From: Candidatus Nanopelagicaceae bacterium
GTDB lineage: Archaea; Asgardarchaeota; Lokiarchaeia; Sigyniarchaeales; SOKP01
Length of the DNA stretch: 62,300 nucleotides
Assembly: GCA_035530895.1 (NCBI GenBank)
Contig: DATKTW010000134.1
Span: 1 to 62,300, forward strand
Direction of reading: 5' to 3'
Below are positions 19,333-25,997 of this stretch, piece by piece. Each line of letters starts with the position of its first letter. Position 1 is the first letter of the stretch. The translations under genes were made by a program, and so were the position numbers. The notes under the pieces were generated by a model. The model did no database searches. It was given only the letters and a program-made list of their open reading frames with translations, and was not told the origin of the DNA.

Positions 19333-20040
19333 ATGAAAGGACATAAAATTCTAAGAGATTATTTTAATACCGTTACATACTCTGAAAATCACTTGACACT
19401 ATTAAAACAAAAAAGAGAACGATCTAAAACACTGCTGGAGATGTTCGCTAAAGAGGGTTTGAACCCATTTTTATATGGTAGTATTGCTCGAGGCGATGTG
19501 CATAACGATAGCGATATCGACATTGTTTTAATCCAATCAATCGCTCCGTATCAAATAGAAATAATACTCGACAAGAACGGTTTTAATAATTACTTCAGAG
19601 AAATTATTATGGCAACTCCCGCTGACACTTTGAAACTCTACATCTATTTAAGCGAGTTAGAGAGCATAACAATTCCATTATCTAAGTTCGATAAAAAATC
19701 AAGAGAATTTTACGATTTTGGAGGAAAAATTAATATAAACCAATTAAAAAATAGTATTAGAGTGCCTGGAATCGATAAAAGGTTAGTTTTGATTCAACCC
19801 ACTTCTGATGGTCATGAAGAATATTCGATTATTGGAAACGAAAATTTAGCTGCAAAGCAGTTGAATGTTAGTATTGATTTGATTAATGAAAGAAAAAAAG
19901 TTCTTTTAAAGAGAGAAAAATTTGGAAAAACAGGTGTATTTTTAAAGAGATCAATTGAAATATACGAAACTACCGAAGATGTGTTAAAAAAATTAGCCAA
20001 TAAAAAATCGATTGTGAGAAAAAAGCTGTTACAAAGATGA
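19333..20040 (+). CDS. Pol-beta-superfamily nucleotidyltransferase domain protein
   Basis: 235 aa. YGSIARGDVHNDSDIDIVL is the GS-x-DxD nucleotidyltransferase motif. Its stop overlaps the next start (ATGA). Confidence 0.55.
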   Translation: MKGHKILRDYFNTVTYSENHLTLLKQKRERSKTLLEMFAKEGLNPFLYGSIARGDVHNDSDIDIVLIQSIAPYQIEIILDKNGFNNYFREIIMATPADTLKLYIYLSELESITIPLSKFDKKSREFYDFGGKININQLKNSIRVPGIDKRLVLIQPTSDGHEEYSIIGNENLAAKQLNVSIDLINERKKVLLKREKFGKTGVFLKRSIEIYETTEDVLKKLANKKSIVRKKLLQR

Positions 20041-21188
20041 GAGATCCAGTGATTTTAGAATCTAGAGCACATACATTTTATGTGAAAAAAGAAGGAATCC
20101 CTAAAGGATGTCAACAATGTTTAAAGGGTGCCAAAGCAGTATTATTTCTTAATGGAATCTGTCAGAATCCAAAACATTGTTGGTGGTATTGTCCGATTTC
20201 TGAAAAACGAAAAGGTAAGAAAGATACCTATATAAACGAGATTCAAATATCTTCTAAAGAGCAGATACTACATGAACTCAAAGCTATTAATGCGAAAGGC
20301 ATGAGTATTACGGGTGGAGACCCGTTATATGAACCTAACTTAAAAAAAACGCTAGAATATATCAAATTCATCAAAGAAAATAAAGGAAAAAAGTTCCATA
20401 TTCACCTTTATACCAACGGTCTTAATTTTAGCGAAGAAATTGCGGCAAAACTCGCTCGAGCAGGGTTAGACGAAATTAGATTCAACCCTGCAAAAGAAAA
20501 TTGGAATGTGATTAAATACGCATTAAACAAGGGTATGTCCGTAGGAGCTGAAGTTCCTGTGATTCCAGATGCGGAATATATCGAAAATTTGAAAAAATTC
20601 ATCTTTTATATGAATAAAATAGGCGCAGATTTTATCAATTTGAATGAATTTGAGTATACTTTACCAAATAGTCAAAACCTTAAGGACCGAAATTTTAAGT
20701 TGGAAGCAGGTACAATAGCATCTGTAAAGAATAGTAAAGAGTGTGCTATTAAACTCATACATGATATCGTTCCAAAAGTTTCAATAAAAATTCATTTTTG
20801 TACGATTATAGCTAAGGATTATTGGCAATTGAGAGAAAGGTATTTAAGACGTGCAAAAACTATTAAATTACCATACGAAGAAATCACGAGAGATGGTTTG
20901 CTATTATACGCTCTAATAGAAGGCGAGAAGAAGGACATTAAAGCGTTTTATAATCTTTTATTAAATGAGCTAAAAGTCCCTCAAAACTTCTTATCTTACG
21001 AAGTAACTTATATTAAATTACCCATAAAGTTTGCTTTGGAAGAATTTTTTATGGATTTACTAATTCAACATAATTTAAAAGGATATATAATAGAAATGAT
21101 ACCGTTTCGAGAAGAAAAATATCAACAAATAACGGAAAAAACACCTATAAGGTTATTTAAAGAAGAGATGGGACTAAATGATTATTGA
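20037..21188 (+). CDS. radical-SAM / pyruvate-formate-lyase-activase-related protein (COG2108-like)
   Basis: 383 aa. Cys cluster CQQC...CQNPKHCWWYCP is followed by a TIM-barrel-like region (GMSITGGDPL, HLYTNG). The assignment is from memory of the family and is of low certainty. Confidence 0.4.
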   Translation: MRDPVILESRAHTFYVKKEGIPKGCQQCLKGAKAVLFLNGICQNPKHCWWYCPISEKRKGKKDTYINEIQISSKEQILHELKAINAKGMSITGGDPLYEPNLKKTLEYIKFIKENKGKKFHIHLYTNGLNFSEEIAAKLARAGLDEIRFNPAKENWNVIKYALNKGMSVGAEVPVIPDAEYIENLKKFIFYMNKIGADFINLNEFEYTLPNSQNLKDRNFKLEAGTIASVKNSKECAIKLIHDIVPKVSIKIHFCTIIAKDYWQLRERYLRRAKTIKLPYEEITRDGLLLYALIEGEKKDIKAFYNLLLNELKVPQNFLSYEVTYIKLPIKFALEEFFMDLLIQHNLKGYIIEMIPFREEKYQQITEKTPIRLFKEEMGLNDY

Positions 21189-21624
21189 TACCGTCACTCT
21201 TAAGGATTTAGATGAAATTTACAATTTAGAAAGAAGAAATTTCAAGAAGGACTCATTTTCTAAAGAACTAATTTTTAATTTGATAAAAACGAACAAATAT
21301 TTTTTTAAGCTCATTGATGACGAATTATCGAATAGTATTATAGGGTTCATCATTATTATTCAAGATCGAGAAGAAAAATTAAACTTAATTAACTTTTTAA
21401 TTAGAAAGGGGGAAAGAAAAAGAGGTTATGGGAGTTTTCTTTTAAGATACACTCTGAAAAAAGTGATAGCATTAGATAAGATAAAAACAATTATATTGAA
21501 TGTGAACTCTAAAAATAAAGCTGCTATAAGCTTGTATCAAAAATTTGATTTTCAGATTGTCGAAAGAATAGAAAATTATTATCGGGACAAGCAAAGCGCT
21601 TACTTAATGATATTGAACATTTAA
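21178..21624 (+). CDS. GNAT family N-acetyltransferase (RimI-like)
   Basis: 148 aa. RKRGYGSFLL acetyl-CoA-binding motif and the LYQKFDF segment. Confidence 0.7.
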   Translation: MIIDTVTLKDLDEIYNLERRNFKKDSFSKELIFNLIKTNKYFFKLIDDELSNSIIGFIIIIQDREEKLNLINFLIRKGERKRGYGSFLLRYTLKKVIALDKIKTIILNVNSKNKAAISLYQKFDFQIVERIENYYRDKQSAYLMILNI

Positions 21625-21734
21625 TCATTTTCTAAAAACCAAGACTTATAAATAAATTCTATTATAAATTTTGTATAGAACGCATTGATAATGTGCTCAA
21701 AAAAAGGAAACAAAAATAAAAGTATTGAGTGATT

Positions 21735-21890
21735 ATGACGCCCTTAGGTACCGAATTAAAAGATGAAATTAAAAAAGGTGTTACTCTCCAAAAGGTTGAC
21801 GAGGAAGATATGAAAAAACGTGAAGAAGAGAAAAAGAAACGAATGGAAGAATTAGAAAAAGTTAAAGCAGCCTTAGGAGCTAAAGATTAA
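21735..21890 (+). CDS. unannotated 51-aa ORF with a canonical-looking WH2 (actin-monomer-binding) motif
   Basis: ATG 21735, TAA 21888..21890. Translation is MTPLGTELKDEIKKGVTLQKVDEEDMKKREEEKKKRMEELEKVKAALGAKD, in which LKDEIKKGVTLQKV fits L-x3-I-x2-G-x2-L-[KQ]-K-V. TATA-like boxes lie upstream (about 21646..21672) and T-rich tracts downstream. Confidence 0.5.
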   Translation: MTPLGTELKDEIKKGVTLQKVDEEDMKKREEEKKKRMEELEKVKAALGAKD

Positions 21891-22037
21891 ATTTTATCTG
21901 TTTTTTGTATTTATTATTTTTTTTCTTTATTCTTAGTTTAACTCATAAATCCCCAAGCAAAATGCAATTTAAGTGTGTTAAACTTAATTGTTAGGGTTAA
22001 TTATAAAAATTTAGGAATTTTGAGTTTGAAGTGCCAA

Positions 22038-23111
22038 ATGAAAATTCTGGATATTGATAAGAAGGAGGAAACCATTTCATTAAGAACCGAAGATTTAAAC
22101 GATCTATGGACACTCTATAATATTATTGCTAAAAATGACCACGTAACGGCAAGAACAAACCGTAGAATAGTTTTAAAAGAAGGTTCTAAAGGAGAAAGAA
22201 AACAAATGAAATTGAAAATAAACGTCGATTCTATTTCATTCCACGAGTTTTCAAATCGGTTAAGAGTAAAAGGAACTATCTTAGAAGGACCAGAGGATTT
22301 TGTTTCGTATGGGACATATCACACAATTAATATAGAACCAGGACTAAAATTAACAATTAAAAAACCTAAGTGGTTAAATAGTGAGATTAAACGCCTTAGT
22401 AAATCGCCTAGATTTCAAACTGATTTTGTCATGCTAATAATAGCGATCGAAACAGGGTTAGCAACAATCGCTCTTATTACAAATTATAGCCATAATAGAA
22501 TCGCTACGGTAAAAAAAAACATCCCAGGCAAAAGATACGAGCAATCATATCGAAACAAAGCTTATGAAGAATTCTATAGTGATATTAGCAGCATAATTAA
22601 AGAAAAAGCAGAAAATGTAGATTTAAAAATCATTATAATATGTGGCCCTGGGAGCACAAAGGATCACTTAACACAATATATTAAAGAAAAAGCCCAAATA
22701 ACGAGGTTACCGAAAATCGTAAACATTCAAGCTAGCTCTGGAACTGAAAGTGCAATCCTGGAAACTCTTAAATCAAAAGAACTCAAACTTCTAAAGAAAA
22801 ATGTTAAAATCTTCCATGAAACTGAGAAAATTGAGGAAATTTTTCAGTTGTTTAGCACCAATTCAGATTTAATTGCAATTGGATTCGATGAAATCTCGAA
22901 AGCTATTGAAAAAAGAGCTGTAAAGGAACTTTTTTGCGCAGATATTCTTATAAGAGGTGCATCAAAAAAACAGAAATTAAGAATAGAACAATTATTAAAC
23001 GGTGTAGAATCTTTAGGTGGAGAAATTCATATTTTAAATAGCGAACACCCAACAGGGAAACAAATAATTGATTTGGGATCTATCGTTGCTATTTTAAGAT
23101 TTAAAATTTAA
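22038..23111 (+). CDS. pelA: Pelota/Dom34 (mRNA surveillance, aRF1-related)
   Basis: N-terminus MKILDIDKKEETISLRTEDLNDLWTLYNII is typical of Pelota. I prefer ATG 22038 over the track start 21975. Confidence 0.85.
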   Translation: MKILDIDKKEETISLRTEDLNDLWTLYNIIAKNDHVTARTNRRIVLKEGSKGERKQMKLKINVDSISFHEFSNRLRVKGTILEGPEDFVSYGTYHTINIEPGLKLTIKKPKWLNSEIKRLSKSPRFQTDFVMLIIAIETGLATIALITNYSHNRIATVKKNIPGKRYEQSYRNKAYEEFYSDISSIIKEKAENVDLKIIIICGPGSTKDHLTQYIKEKAQITRLPKIVNIQASSGTESAILETLKSKELKLLKKNVKIFHETEKIEEIFQLFSTNSDLIAIGFDEISKAIEKRAVKELFCADILIRGASKKQKLRIEQLLNGVESLGGEIHILNSEHPTGKQIIDLGSIVAILRFKI

Positions 23112-24482: not shown

Positions 24483-25997
24483 TTGAAAGAATGTGATAAT
24501 AAAGAGTATAGTGATGAAAAAAAAGTTTTAAAAACTGAACTGGAATTAGATGAGAATGAATTTAAACCTCTTGATGAAGTTGAAGGATTATATGATAATT
24601 TAATTGAAAATTTTGAACCAAAAGATGAGTTAGAAAATGAAGACCCACAAATCAAAATTGATTTCATCCCATATGATATAAATTCTTTAGAAACTTTCTC
24701 AAAAAGGGGAAATGATGAATTTACAAAACTTGAAATTGATTATCATCCTAATAATTATAAATATAAATTTTATTCTGAAAAGGATGTCAGATCTTGGATG
24801 CAACAATATAAAAATTATAAATACTTCAAGAAAGTCCAAAATCATTTACGAGCTGAAGGCGAAATGGCACCTGCGATTTCTACCATTCAAAATAGAATTA
24901 AACTATTGTTAGGAAAAGAGAAATACAAAGAATTCGTGAGGAAATACACTTTCAATGATGCAAAAATGATAGTCTCACAAATGGGTATAAGTAAAACTGG
25001 AATTTCTGGAAAAATTTTATCTAATCCTGAAGATTTTAAAGGCGTTAAATCAAAATTATCAATCCAATGTGGAAAATGTAATCACTCTTGGACAACAATA
25101 TTAGATGCGATAATACATAATAAAAGTTGGTGTCCAAATTGTGCTACAAAACATCGAGTAGCAAATCAAAGAGGCTCAGTCAGAAAGCATCAAAAAATTA
25201 TAACGCAAAGAGGTGGTAGGTTAATTGGAGTCATATATGAAGATGCTAAAGAAAAACTTTTCAATCAAAGAACTAGATTCAAAATTGAATGTCAAGCTGG
25301 TCATAAATTTAATATTAACGCTAGCAATCTAAAAATAGGTAGATGGTGTAGGAAATGTAGTCACACAGTTATAGGCGTGAAAAATAGAGGATCTTTCCAA
25401 GATATTCAAAACCTTATTGAAAAGAGGGGTGGTCAATGTATTTCTAAACCAGAAGATTACAAAAATCAACATCAAAAATTAAAAATTCAATGCGATAAAG
25501 ACCATATATTTGAAAGGAGACCTACTAACTTAAAAAGAGGTGATTGGTGCCCTGTTTGTTCTCAAGGAAGATTCGAGAAAATATGTCGAAGTTTTTTCGA
25601 AGAAATTTTTCAAAACGAATTTCCAAAAGAACGACCAAAATGGCTAATAAATTCTCGGGGAAATCAAATGGAACTGGACGGTTATAATAAAGGTTTAGGT
25701 TTGGCATTTGAAGCTCAAGGAGAACAACATTATCACGCTGTAGCACATTTTGATCAGACATTAAAGGACTTAGAACAAAGAATTCAAGACGATTTATTGA
25801 AATTAGAACTATGTAATCAAAAAAATATTAAATTAATACAAATACCATATTATGTGCATCCTAATAATATACAGCATTACATTACTGCTAAATATGAAAA
25901 CTTGATGAATGAAAAATTACCAATAATCCCTAAAATAGATTATAACAGATTTTTAAATACTCCAGATGATCAAAAAAACTTGGATGATTATTTATAG
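24483..25997 (+). CDS. three tandem treble-clef zinc-ribbon repeats plus C-terminal PD-(D/E)XK-like (Vsr/DUF559-like) nuclease domain; probable selfish/homing-type gene
   Basis: 504 aa, TTG start. Repeats are CGKCNHSWTT..HNKSWCPNC, CQAGHKFNI..KIGRWCRKC and CDKDHIFER..KRGDWCPVC, each followed by RG(S/G)... The C-terminus MELDGYNKGLGLAFEAQGEQHY resembles restriction-endonuclease-fold motifs. Confidence 0.55.
   Translation: MKECDNKEYSDEKKVLKTELELDENEFKPLDEVEGLYDNLIENFEPKDELENEDPQIKIDFIPYDINSLETFSKRGNDEFTKLEIDYHPNNYKYKFYSEKDVRSWMQQYKNYKYFKKVQNHLRAEGEMAPAISTIQNRIKLLLGKEKYKEFVRKYTFNDAKMIVSQMGISKTGISGKILSNPEDFKGVKSKLSIQCGKCNHSWTTILDAIIHNKSWCPNCATKHRVANQRGSVRKHQKIITQRGGRLIGVIYEDAKEKLFNQRTRFKIECQAGHKFNINASNLKIGRWCRKCSHTVIGVKNRGSFQDIQNLIEKRGGQCISKPEDYKNQHQKLKIQCDKDHIFERRPTNLKRGDWCPVCSQGRFEKICRSFFEEIFQNEFPKERPKWLINSRGNQMELDGYNKGLGLAFEAQGEQHYHAVAHFDQTLKDLEQRIQDDLLKLELCNQKNIKLIQIPYYVHPNNIQHYITAKYENLMNEKLPIIPKIDYNRFLNTPDDQKNLDDYL

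Follow-up and report, generated by a model that had tools for sequence, protein, structure and literature searches.

A 51-codon open reading frame lies in the gap between an acetyltransferase gene and the Pelota gene in a 62,300-nucleotide stretch of Asgard archaeal DNA (the window; GCA_035530895.1, contig DATKTW010000134.1, positions 1 to 62,300). The preliminary description noted that its translation follows the spacing of the WH2 actin-binding motif, and proposed a thymosin/WH2-like actin-monomer binder. This raised the questions of whether so short a frame is a real gene, and whether its resemblance to WH2 reflects a link to actin.

A small conserved gene between a GNAT acetyltransferase and Pelota

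We first mapped the locus. The frame runs from the ATG at 21735 to the TAA at 21888-21890 and encodes exactly the 51 residues given in the preliminary description. The gap between the GNAT stop codon (21624) and the probable Pelota start (ATG 22038, which gives 357 aa as in the orthologues) is 413 nt, not 350 nt as first noted. The features of the locus are as follows.

21178..21624 (+), the upstream neighbour, a RimI-type GNAT N-acetyltransferase (context, not part of the element)
21644..21668 (+), a conserved promoter-like element, ACTTATAAATAAATTCTATTATAA(A), with two TATA-like boxes, 67-91 nt upstream of the start codon
21717..21733 (+), a putative ribosome-binding region, where relatives have AAAGGTGTTGA and the window has the weaker AAAGTATTGAGTGAT (low confidence for the window's own copy)
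21735..21890 (+), the coding sequence of the 51-aa protein MTPLGTELKDEIKKGVTLQKVDEEDMKKREEEKKKRMEELEKVKAALGAKD, including the stop codon
21750..21776 (+), residues 6-14, a predicted short amphipathic helix with conserved L8 and I12, capped by the near-invariant G15
21756..21797 (+), residues 8-21, LKDEIKKGVTLQKV, the WH2-like core, in which L18-Q-K20-V21 is the LKKV-equivalent
21801..21881 (+), residues 23-49, a predicted long, highly charged, conserved helix of ER/K single-alpha-helix character
21892..21930 (+), a T-rich tract (T6 at 21901-21906, T8 at 21917-21924), a probable archaeal oligo-T terminator that separates the gene from Pelota
22038..23111 (+), the downstream neighbour, Pelota (NCBIfam TIGR00111 at 242.7 bits; context, not part of the element)

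The frame is short, lies in an AT-rich intergenic gap and was found by eye. Hence a chance ORF, a leader or uORF of Pelota, or a non-coding RNA had to be considered. The evolutionary data refute this possibility. The ORF is intact in 79 of 81 sources, and 216 homologues of 48-51 aa share 69-92% identity with it. Pairwise dN/dS among four lineages is 0.05-0.16 with saturated dS. Divergence at codon positions 1, 2 and 3 is 0.16, 0.08 and 0.40, the third-position value being 4.7 times that of second positions. The median amino-acid identity is 75%, compared with 62% for Pelota and 48% for the GNAT in the same genomes. The ATG at 21735, not the GTG at 21729, matches the M[TA]P start of the homologues. 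The conservation and selection that the preliminary description had set as its own test are present. Its label "unannotated" only reflects an ORF-size cut-off, because the gene is called in 19 public contigs and as a hypothetical protein in NCBI MAGs.

The flanking signals noted in the preliminary description are also real. Performing a MAFFT alignment of 79 distinct upstream regions, we find that most positions of the 21644..21668 element are at least 80% conserved, whereas synonymous sites of the gene are saturated. The role of this element as an archaeal TATA/BRE promoter is inferred; a bacterial-type promoter and terminator scan does not apply to archaea. T-tracts are present downstream in all lineages compared, although terminator function is likewise inferred.

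The GNAT-small gene-Pelota order holds in 67 of 69 loci. This synteny raised the question of whether the protein is a translation- or ribosome-associated small factor, for example an analogue of eukaryotic TMA7 (PF09072), linked functionally to its two neighbours. The two proteins are similar in size, and the C-terminal half weakly resembles the K/E-rich helical segment of TMA7 (DEED...KKxEEL; hhalign P 0.026). A weak hit to aEF-1beta was seen, and a RimI-type GNAT also lies beside the divergent family member P0135. However, the hhalign probability for TMA7 is only 1.9%, there is no Pfam hit, and the protein has net charge 0 (14 basic, 14 acidic residues), unlike the strongly basic TMA7. The gene has its own promoter-like element and probable terminator. 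The Pelota linkage is lost next to P0135 and another divergent member, P0139, so it is lineage-specific synteny, and the two GNATs share only 32% identity. We consider this reading very unlikely.

Next, we checked the distribution of the family. All named members are Promethearchaeota (Asgard), and all 82 matches among 185,579 prokaryotic species representatives are Asgard MAGs or unnamed archaeal MAGs. This is the only prokaryotic group with eukaryote-like actin, profilin and gelsolin. Labels at class level (Thor, Odin, Hod) could not be trusted, because identical proteins occur in MAGs with different labels. Cluster look-ups of distant members gave no taxonomic names.

WH2 likeness of the N-terminal half

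Pfam and NCBIfam scans of the protein gave no family. The Pfam WH2 profile (PF02205), proposed as a check in the preliminary description, gives no hit at E<=10 for the window's protein. No member reaches the gathering score of 23.1 bits; only 4 of 63 N-terminal segments from family members touch PF02205, with a best E of 0.043. In comparison, eight reference WH2 domains score 34-51 bits. The WAVE and N-WASP strings given in the preliminary description are correct, as Pfam scores them as WH2 at 34-37 bits and the N-WASP string is printed in PDB alignments.

Nevertheless, the match is more than chance. Using our own WH2 HMM, the ORF is the best hit among all 733 six-frame segments of the window (7.3 bits, next best 3.4), and family members fill roughly the top 67 ranks among 4,758 segments from 80 related loci, although the family scores only 6-11 bits. 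Performing hhalign against eight Pfam-validated WH2 domains, we obtained P 3.8e-4 for single modules, 9.4e-5 for an independent set of repeat units, and 2.8e-6 for N-terminal halves pooled from single, tandem and fusion forms, always in the same register. The signal grew as the profile was diversified, from 36% to 59% to 88% probability (88.4% over 20 columns for the pooled set). Column-shuffle nulls gave 0/300, 0/200 and 0/300, with z up to 10.8. We chose where to cut the N-terminal segments with the WH2 hypothesis in mind, and for so short a motif a profile-level relationship cannot separate homology from convergence.

In searches of the PDB, the top hit of the family profile is the N-WASP WH2 tandem (E 1e-4 and 2e-4). 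This rank comes from summing three repeats; per domain, an unrelated aEF-1beta segment scored higher (15.6 bits against at most 9.8). With the pooled profile the aEF-1beta hit disappears, and we regard it as local chance. Five of the seven hits are then WH2 peptides solved on actin, namely N-WASP three times (best 6.9e-8), VopL (3m1f_V) and Spire (3mn7_S). Searching 1.84 billion proteins, the Asgard profile also retrieved a probable eukaryotic WH2-repeat protein, P0163, at E 4.7e-5. A homology search with P0163 returned only three unnamed metagenomic sequences, and its eukaryotic origin rests on intron-like features of the contig.

At the residue level, the spacing of helix, Gly, two-residue spacer and L-x-K-V segment is identical to WAVE and N-WASP. 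Four of the five invariant WH2 positions (L, I, G, L) coincide with the most conserved N-terminal positions of the family. G15 is present in 55 of 63 sequences, L18 in 63 of 63 and K20 in 51 of 63, while position 21 is V, P or I. The fifth position, the second Leu of the helix, is K or Q in the stand-alone form but hydrophobic (L, M, I or F) in the tandem and fusion forms. In the stand-alone form the first basic residue of LKKV is often Q, E, T or D, though canonical LKKV occurs in at least seven divergent representatives.

AlphaFold2 predicts helix 6-14 (pLDDT 84-86), an extended segment 15-22 and helix 23-49 (pLDDT about 90), with an overall pLDDT of 88 but pTM 0.44. A Foldseek search with this model gave no hits, which fits a non-globular binding peptide. 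The C-terminal helix is 67% charged, with 11 i/i+4 and 12 i/i+3 opposite-charge pairs. R36 and E39 are invariant, and E32, K33, K35 and L40 are conserved at 90% or more. This helix is at least as conserved as the WH2-like half and has no WH2 counterpart. By eye, its register does not fit the ESCRT MIM1 motif.

The predicted architecture resembles that of beta-thymosins (PF01290), which are also stand-alone peptides of about 45-50 residues with an N-terminal helix, an LKKT-type segment and a C-terminal helix, and which have tandem-repeat relatives (ciboulot, actobindin). Thymosin beta-4 itself fails Pfam's WH2 threshold (14 bits). However, this is a match of architecture, not of sequence. There is no Pfam Thymosin hit, and hhalign against thymosin beta-4 gives P 0.11 with a misregistered alignment. 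The helix-to-LKKT spacer is shorter (2 residues, against what appears to be 4-5 in thymosin beta-4), and the C-terminal helix is much longer, starts directly after the LKKV-like segment and is ER/K-rich.

Profilin fusions and tandem arrays of the module

Interestingly, the module also occurs in larger proteins. A family of 36 proteins (P0152/P0176-P0206) fuses it to an N-terminal domain whose top 28 Foldseek hits are all profilins. These are led by Odin profilin 5zza_P (TM 0.89, rmsd 1.6 A, E 5e-10, 25% identity), and the best matches are Odin, Loki, Thor and Heimdall profilins and then eukaryotic profilins. Pfam Profilin scores 21.6 and 19.1 bits for P0152 and P0154, below the threshold of 25, while P0188 and P0189 carry PF00235 in the precomputed annotation. 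These fusions are paralogues, not the window's gene. In addition, P0121, P0166 and P0171 carry 4-9 consecutive units whose helices have the canonical double hydrophobic pattern, for example LLGEITSETPRLKKID. WH2 likewise occurs in tandem in the actin nucleators Spire, Cordon-bleu and VopL/VopF. The repeat period is 45-47 aa because of the ER/K helix, longer than the roughly 30 aa that seems usual for eukaryotic arrays.

These observations led us to favor, with moderate confidence, the view that the ORF encodes a small, non-globular, Asgard-specific protein built from one copy of a two-part module, and that it is probably a third class of archaeal actin regulator. Residues about 6-21 would be a WH2-class actin-binding motif and residues 23-49 a conserved ER/K-type rigid helix. 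Binding to actin, the binding site and the effect on polymerisation are inferred. We propose that the LQKV segment runs up the front of the actin monomer, as in WH2 and thymosin complexes, and that the charged helix either lies along the actin surface towards the pointed face, in a thymosin-like sequestering mode, or acts as a rigid spacer. The single-module protein would therefore buffer or sequester monomers like a beta-thymosin. The tandem arrays would line up several monomers, acting as nucleators or filament binders like Spire, Cobl or VopL, and the profilin fusion would hand profilin-bound actin to the WH2-like element.

Alternatively, the protein could be an Asgard-specific adaptor or regulatory peptide for a partner other than actin. 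The WH2 resemblance would then be convergence on a common helix-Gly-extended pattern, and the charged helix would be the real functional surface. The conservation of this helix, the failure to reach the Pfam threshold and the comparable per-domain score of a globular aEF-1beta segment are in line with this view. The module is also fused to LRR, RHH/NikA-like and zinc-ribbon domains, and no actin, profilin or gelsolin gene lies near any family member examined. On the other hand, the WH2 signal strengthens in one register as the profile is diversified, WH2 peptides dominate the PDB hits, the most populous fusion partner is profilin, a dedicated actin-monomer binder, and the tandem repetition mirrors WH2 proteins. 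We regard this alternative as doubtful, but it is the strongest of those considered.

The module could also bind the side of actin filaments, with the ER/K helix lying along F-actin, the arrays acting as nebulin-like rulers or stabilisers, and the single-module protein decorating or stabilising filaments. The repeat units abut without linkers at a regular period and are mostly helical, and the long helix takes up more than half of each unit. However, the WH2-type helix and the LKKV segment are monomer and barbed-face elements in all solved complexes retrieved, the profilin fusion points to monomer handling, and no similarity to nebulin or tropomyosin appeared in any search. This reading is unlikely.

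Relation to known archaeal actin regulators

The suggestion in the preliminary description that this class is undescribed in archaea needs qualifying. WH2-like LKKT motifs between the two domains of Asgard gelsolins (Thor LRRV, Heim LKHV/LRRT, Loki LVDV, L. ossiferum LKDV) are already known. They lie on the same actin surface in crystal structures with rabbit actin, and tolerate non-basic residues in the LKKT positions. In gelsolins only the four-residue extended segment is present, as a linker inside a globular protein, whereas here a complete helix + Gly + LxKV unit stands alone or repeats. No homology to gelsolin was detected. In the papers searched, we found no description of stand-alone, tandem or profilin-fused forms. 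The Lokiactin co-IP and proteome table of bioRxiv 10.1101/2025.11.30.690169 uses in-house locus tags (GNAMCCOK_...) that could not be mapped to sequences.

Reviews and a December 2025 study of living Asgard cells state that these archaea regulate Lokiactin mainly through profilins and gelsolins. A more far-reaching possibility, which we hold only tentatively and consider less likely than not, is that the WH2 module predates eukaryotes and that Asgard archaea carry a third class of actin regulator, made of a WH2 element joined to a rigid ER/K helix. The 51-aa form would be the archaeal counterpart of a beta-thymosin monomer buffer. The arrays would be the missing Lokiactin nucleators, since neither formins nor a complete Arp2/3 complex seem to be known in Asgards, and the profilin-WH2 fusion would be a one-polypeptide precursor of the profilin-to-WH2 hand-off used by WASP and Ena/VASP proteins.

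Even if actin is not the partner, this protein is more conserved than any of its five neighbours in the same genomes, including Pelota, and has no assigned function. A conserved, apparently independently transcribed WH2-like protein, with tandem-array and profilin-fused relatives, would add a third regulator class and would give concrete candidates for a monomer buffer and for nucleators. It would also move the origin of the most widespread eukaryotic actin-binding motif to before eukaryogenesis.

A conserved small gene between a GNAT acetyltransferase and Pelota

We first checked the reading frame and its surroundings. The ORF encodes MTPLGTELKDEIKKGVTLQKVDEEDMKKREEEKKKRMEELEKVKAALGAKD, exactly as the preliminary description had translated it, in a window of about 30% G+C. 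The features of this stretch are as follows.
19333-21624: nucleotidyltransferase, radical-SAM and GNAT genes, overlapping by 4 and 11 nt (20037-20040 and 21178-21188)
21178-21624, same strand as the small gene: RimI-type GNAT acetyltransferase, upstream neighbour
21644-21668: conserved element ACTTATAAATAAATTCTATTATAA of 24-25 nt with two TATA-like boxes
21735 (ATG) to 21890 (TAA), + strand: the small gene
21975-23111: Pelota as placed by the mechanical ORF list, from GTG 21975 (378 aa); the start is best placed at ATG 22038
24483-25997, + strand: a 504-aa protein rich in paired CxxC zinc-ribbon-like motifs

The ATG at 22038 gives Pelota the 357 aa of its orthologues, all of those seen being 357-360 aa, and leaves room for Pelota's own promoter after the T-tracts of the small gene. 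The gap around the small gene is 413 nt, rather than the 350 nt stated in the preliminary description. The gene is also not truly unannotated. The identical protein is called on 19 public contigs, and relatives are "hypothetical protein" entries in NCBI MAGs. The overlaps of the three upstream genes suggest one operon ending just before the promoter of the small gene, and this arrangement is conserved in the related loci examined. The 504-aa protein has no NCBIfam match, and its orthologue in the locus L001 has only weak Pfam CapR and DUF4379 hits.

Performing a search of 5.8 billion protein clusters, we found 216 relatives. All those listed are 48-51 aa long and 69-92% identical, and every one that carries an organism name comes from Asgard archaea. 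The JGI names of some members ("multidrug resistance efflux pump", "spermidine/putrescine-binding protein"; P0003, P0012, P0046, P0083 and P0091) are clear mis-annotations of a 50-aa soluble peptide. Compared with three other lineages, the pairwise dN/dS is 0.05-0.16 with synonymous sites saturated. Over 78 distinct coding sequences, the divergence per site at codon positions 1, 2 and 3 is 0.16, 0.08 and 0.40, respectively. The ORF is intact in 79 of 81 sources, with ATG, GTG or TTG starts. In the same genomes, its median identity to the window's copy is 75%, against 62% for Pelota and 48% for the GNAT, and in a four-way comparison it is the most conserved of six neighbouring genes. These observations exclude a non-coding or chance ORF.

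We also examined the flanking DNA. The element ACTTATAAATAAATTCTATTATAA is largely at least 80% conserved across 79 loci, although the synonymous sites of the gene are saturated, and it is probably a strong archaeal promoter. A Shine-Dalgarno-like AAAGGTGTTGA precedes the start in most relatives, and T-tracts follow the stop codon. We infer an independent transcription unit with a TATA-type promoter and an oligo-T terminator.

Distribution and predicted structure

Scanning one genome for each of 185,579 bacterial and archaeal species, we obtained 82 confirmed matches. All are Promethearchaeota or unnamed archaeal MAGs. Named members of the distant, tandem and fusion forms are also Promethearchaeota. 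However, the class labels (Thor, Odin, Hod, Hermod) from one large submission are not reliable, because identical proteins carry different labels. The phylum-level specificity is therefore solid, while the class-level breadth is uncertain.

The order GNAT-small gene-Pelota holds in 67 of 69 close loci, which raised the question of whether the protein has a TMA7-like or Pelota-linked role in translation. However, the order is absent next to two divergent members, P0139 (MoxR/VWA and Arf/Roc GTPase neighbours) and P0135 (ZPR1 neighbour), and is therefore lineage-specific synteny, not a functional clue. A RimI-type N-alpha-acetyltransferase does lie beside P0135 (L099 7239-7712), downstream on the opposite strand, but the two enzymes share only 32% identity. 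The hhalign probability for TMA7 is only 1.9%. The small protein has a net charge of 0, whereas TMA7 is very basic, and the gene has its own inferred promoter and terminator. This explanation is therefore weak.

AlphaFold2, run with a 40-sequence alignment, predicts helix 6-14, a non-helical segment 15-22 (GVTLQKVD) and helix 23-49. The local confidence is high (pLDDT 88), but pTM is low (0.44), and Foldseek finds no fold match. This describes a non-globular peptide. Across 40 diverse single-module members, L18, R36 and E39 are invariant, and G15, K20, E32, K33, K35 and L40 are at least 90% conserved. The C-terminal helix is 67% charged, with dense i/i+3 and i/i+4 opposite-charge pairs, from which we infer an ER/K single alpha-helix.

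Similarity of the N-terminal half to the WH2 motif

We next asked whether the N-terminal half is a WH2 motif, as the preliminary description had proposed. Direct membership fails. Pfam PF02205 gives no hit for this protein, and only 4 of 63 N-terminal segments from family members touch it, with E no better than 0.043. Our own WH2 HMM gives the family 6-11 bits. Interestingly, thymosin beta-4, a proven WH2-class actin binder, also scores only 14 bits against Pfam WH2. This failure therefore lowers the claim of membership but not the claim of mechanism. As a multiple-testing control, we scored all 733 six-frame segments of the window, and the ORF is the best WH2-HMM hit among them. Family members fill roughly the top 67 ranks among 4,758 segments of 80 related loci.

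The profile-level evidence is consistent and grows with diversity. Among 177,635 PDB sequences, the best hit of the family profile is the N-WASP WH2 tandem (E 1e-4), with a second N-WASP construct and the MIM WH2 also listed, and a broader profile reproduces the N-WASP hits. In these two searches, however, the rank of N-WASP comes from summing three repeats, and an aEF-1beta segment scored higher per domain. Performing hhalign against eight reference WH2 domains, validated with Pfam at 34-51 bits, we find that residues 6-24 align in exact register (P 3.8e-4, probability 36%). The score of 19.95 compares with a column-shuffle null of mean 7.3, sd 1.7 and maximum 13.4 (0 of 300). An independent set of 17 repeat units from tandem paralogues aligns in the same register (P 9.4e-5, probability 59%, 0 of 200 shuffles). 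These units carry the canonical double-hydrophobic helix, for example LLGEITSETPRLKKID and SLMAEIQQGPTLKEI.

We then pooled the N-terminal halves of single, tandem and fusion forms (63 sequences). The hhalign probability rose to 88.4%, with P 2.8e-6, z 10.8 and 0 of 300 shuffles. The segment boundaries were chosen with knowledge of the hypothesis, and for a motif of about 20 residues, profile similarity cannot separate common descent from convergence. The PDB search with the pooled profile returned seven sequences at E<=10, and the aEF-1beta hit disappeared. Five of the seven are WH2 peptides crystallised with actin: N-WASP three times (6.9e-8, 1.2e-3 and 6.4e-3), VopL (VPA1370) and Spire.

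Against 1.84 billion representative proteins, the Asgard profile also retrieved P0163 (L095 256-765), a probable WH2-repeat protein from a metagenome, at E 4.7e-5. Its only PDB matches are the N-WASP and WIP WH2 peptides. Its contig shows splice-site-like features, and the prokaryotic gene caller read through intron-like GT...AG sequences, so it is probably eukaryotic. Its helices read LKNEIKKG, LHDEVKKG and LKKDIKKG, the same pattern as the Asgard LKDEIKKG, and its tails resemble WIP and verprolin (LKKTMSVDKSSP).

The module in larger proteins and its possible link to actin

The same search (55 representatives at E<=1e-3) shows the module inside larger proteins. Tandem arrays are found in P0121 (497 aa), which has 9 recognisable units plus one degenerate unit at a 45-47 aa period, and in P0166 and P0171, which have 4 each. 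These proteins consist almost entirely of abutting copies of the module, and several units have the canonical LLxxI...LKK[IV] pattern. They are candidate nucleators or filament binders. Tandem repetition is typical of WH2 and beta-thymosin proteins. At the level of mechanism, binding to the side of filaments instead of to monomers is an alternative.

A family of 36 Asgard proteins (P0152 and P0176-P0206; L090 8001-8909 and L022 from about 725) has an N-terminal domain, one to four WH2-like modules and a small, unassigned C-terminal domain of about 50 aa with an invariant IYDDF motif. AlphaFold2 models the N-terminal domain at pLDDT about 85. Strikingly, the best Foldseek matches of this model are Odin profilin (TM 0.89, rmsd 1.6 A, 25% identity, E 5e-10), Loki profilins 1 and 2, Thor and Heimdall profilins, and then eukaryotic profilins. 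Two family members already carry Pfam Profilin in the precomputed annotation. The established role of profilin is to bind actin monomers, so this fusion links the module to actin independently of the motif argument. The neighbouring genes of the fusion proteins are uninformative, and the window has no actin gene.

The module also follows leucine-rich repeats, with an RHH or a zinc ribbon after it (P0160 and P0170), and an RHH domain (P0167). These fusions, together with the conserved ER/K helix that has no WH2 counterpart, keep alive the one serious rival explanation, that the module binds some other partner and the WH2 likeness is convergent.

WH2-like LKKT segments inside Asgard gelsolins (LRRV, LVDV and LKDV) are already published and were seen on actin in crystal structures. 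None of the papers we found describes a stand-alone, tandem or profilin-fused WH2-like module in archaea, although our literature search was incomplete and a prior description elsewhere cannot be excluded.

In summary, the conserved ORF is confirmed, while its proposed identity as a WH2-like actin-monomer binder is partly supported. The protein is best described as a WH2-like element fused to a conserved ER/K helix, specific to Asgard archaea. We consider actin binding slightly more likely than not. If so, the result would add a third class of archaeal actin regulator and suggest candidate nucleators.
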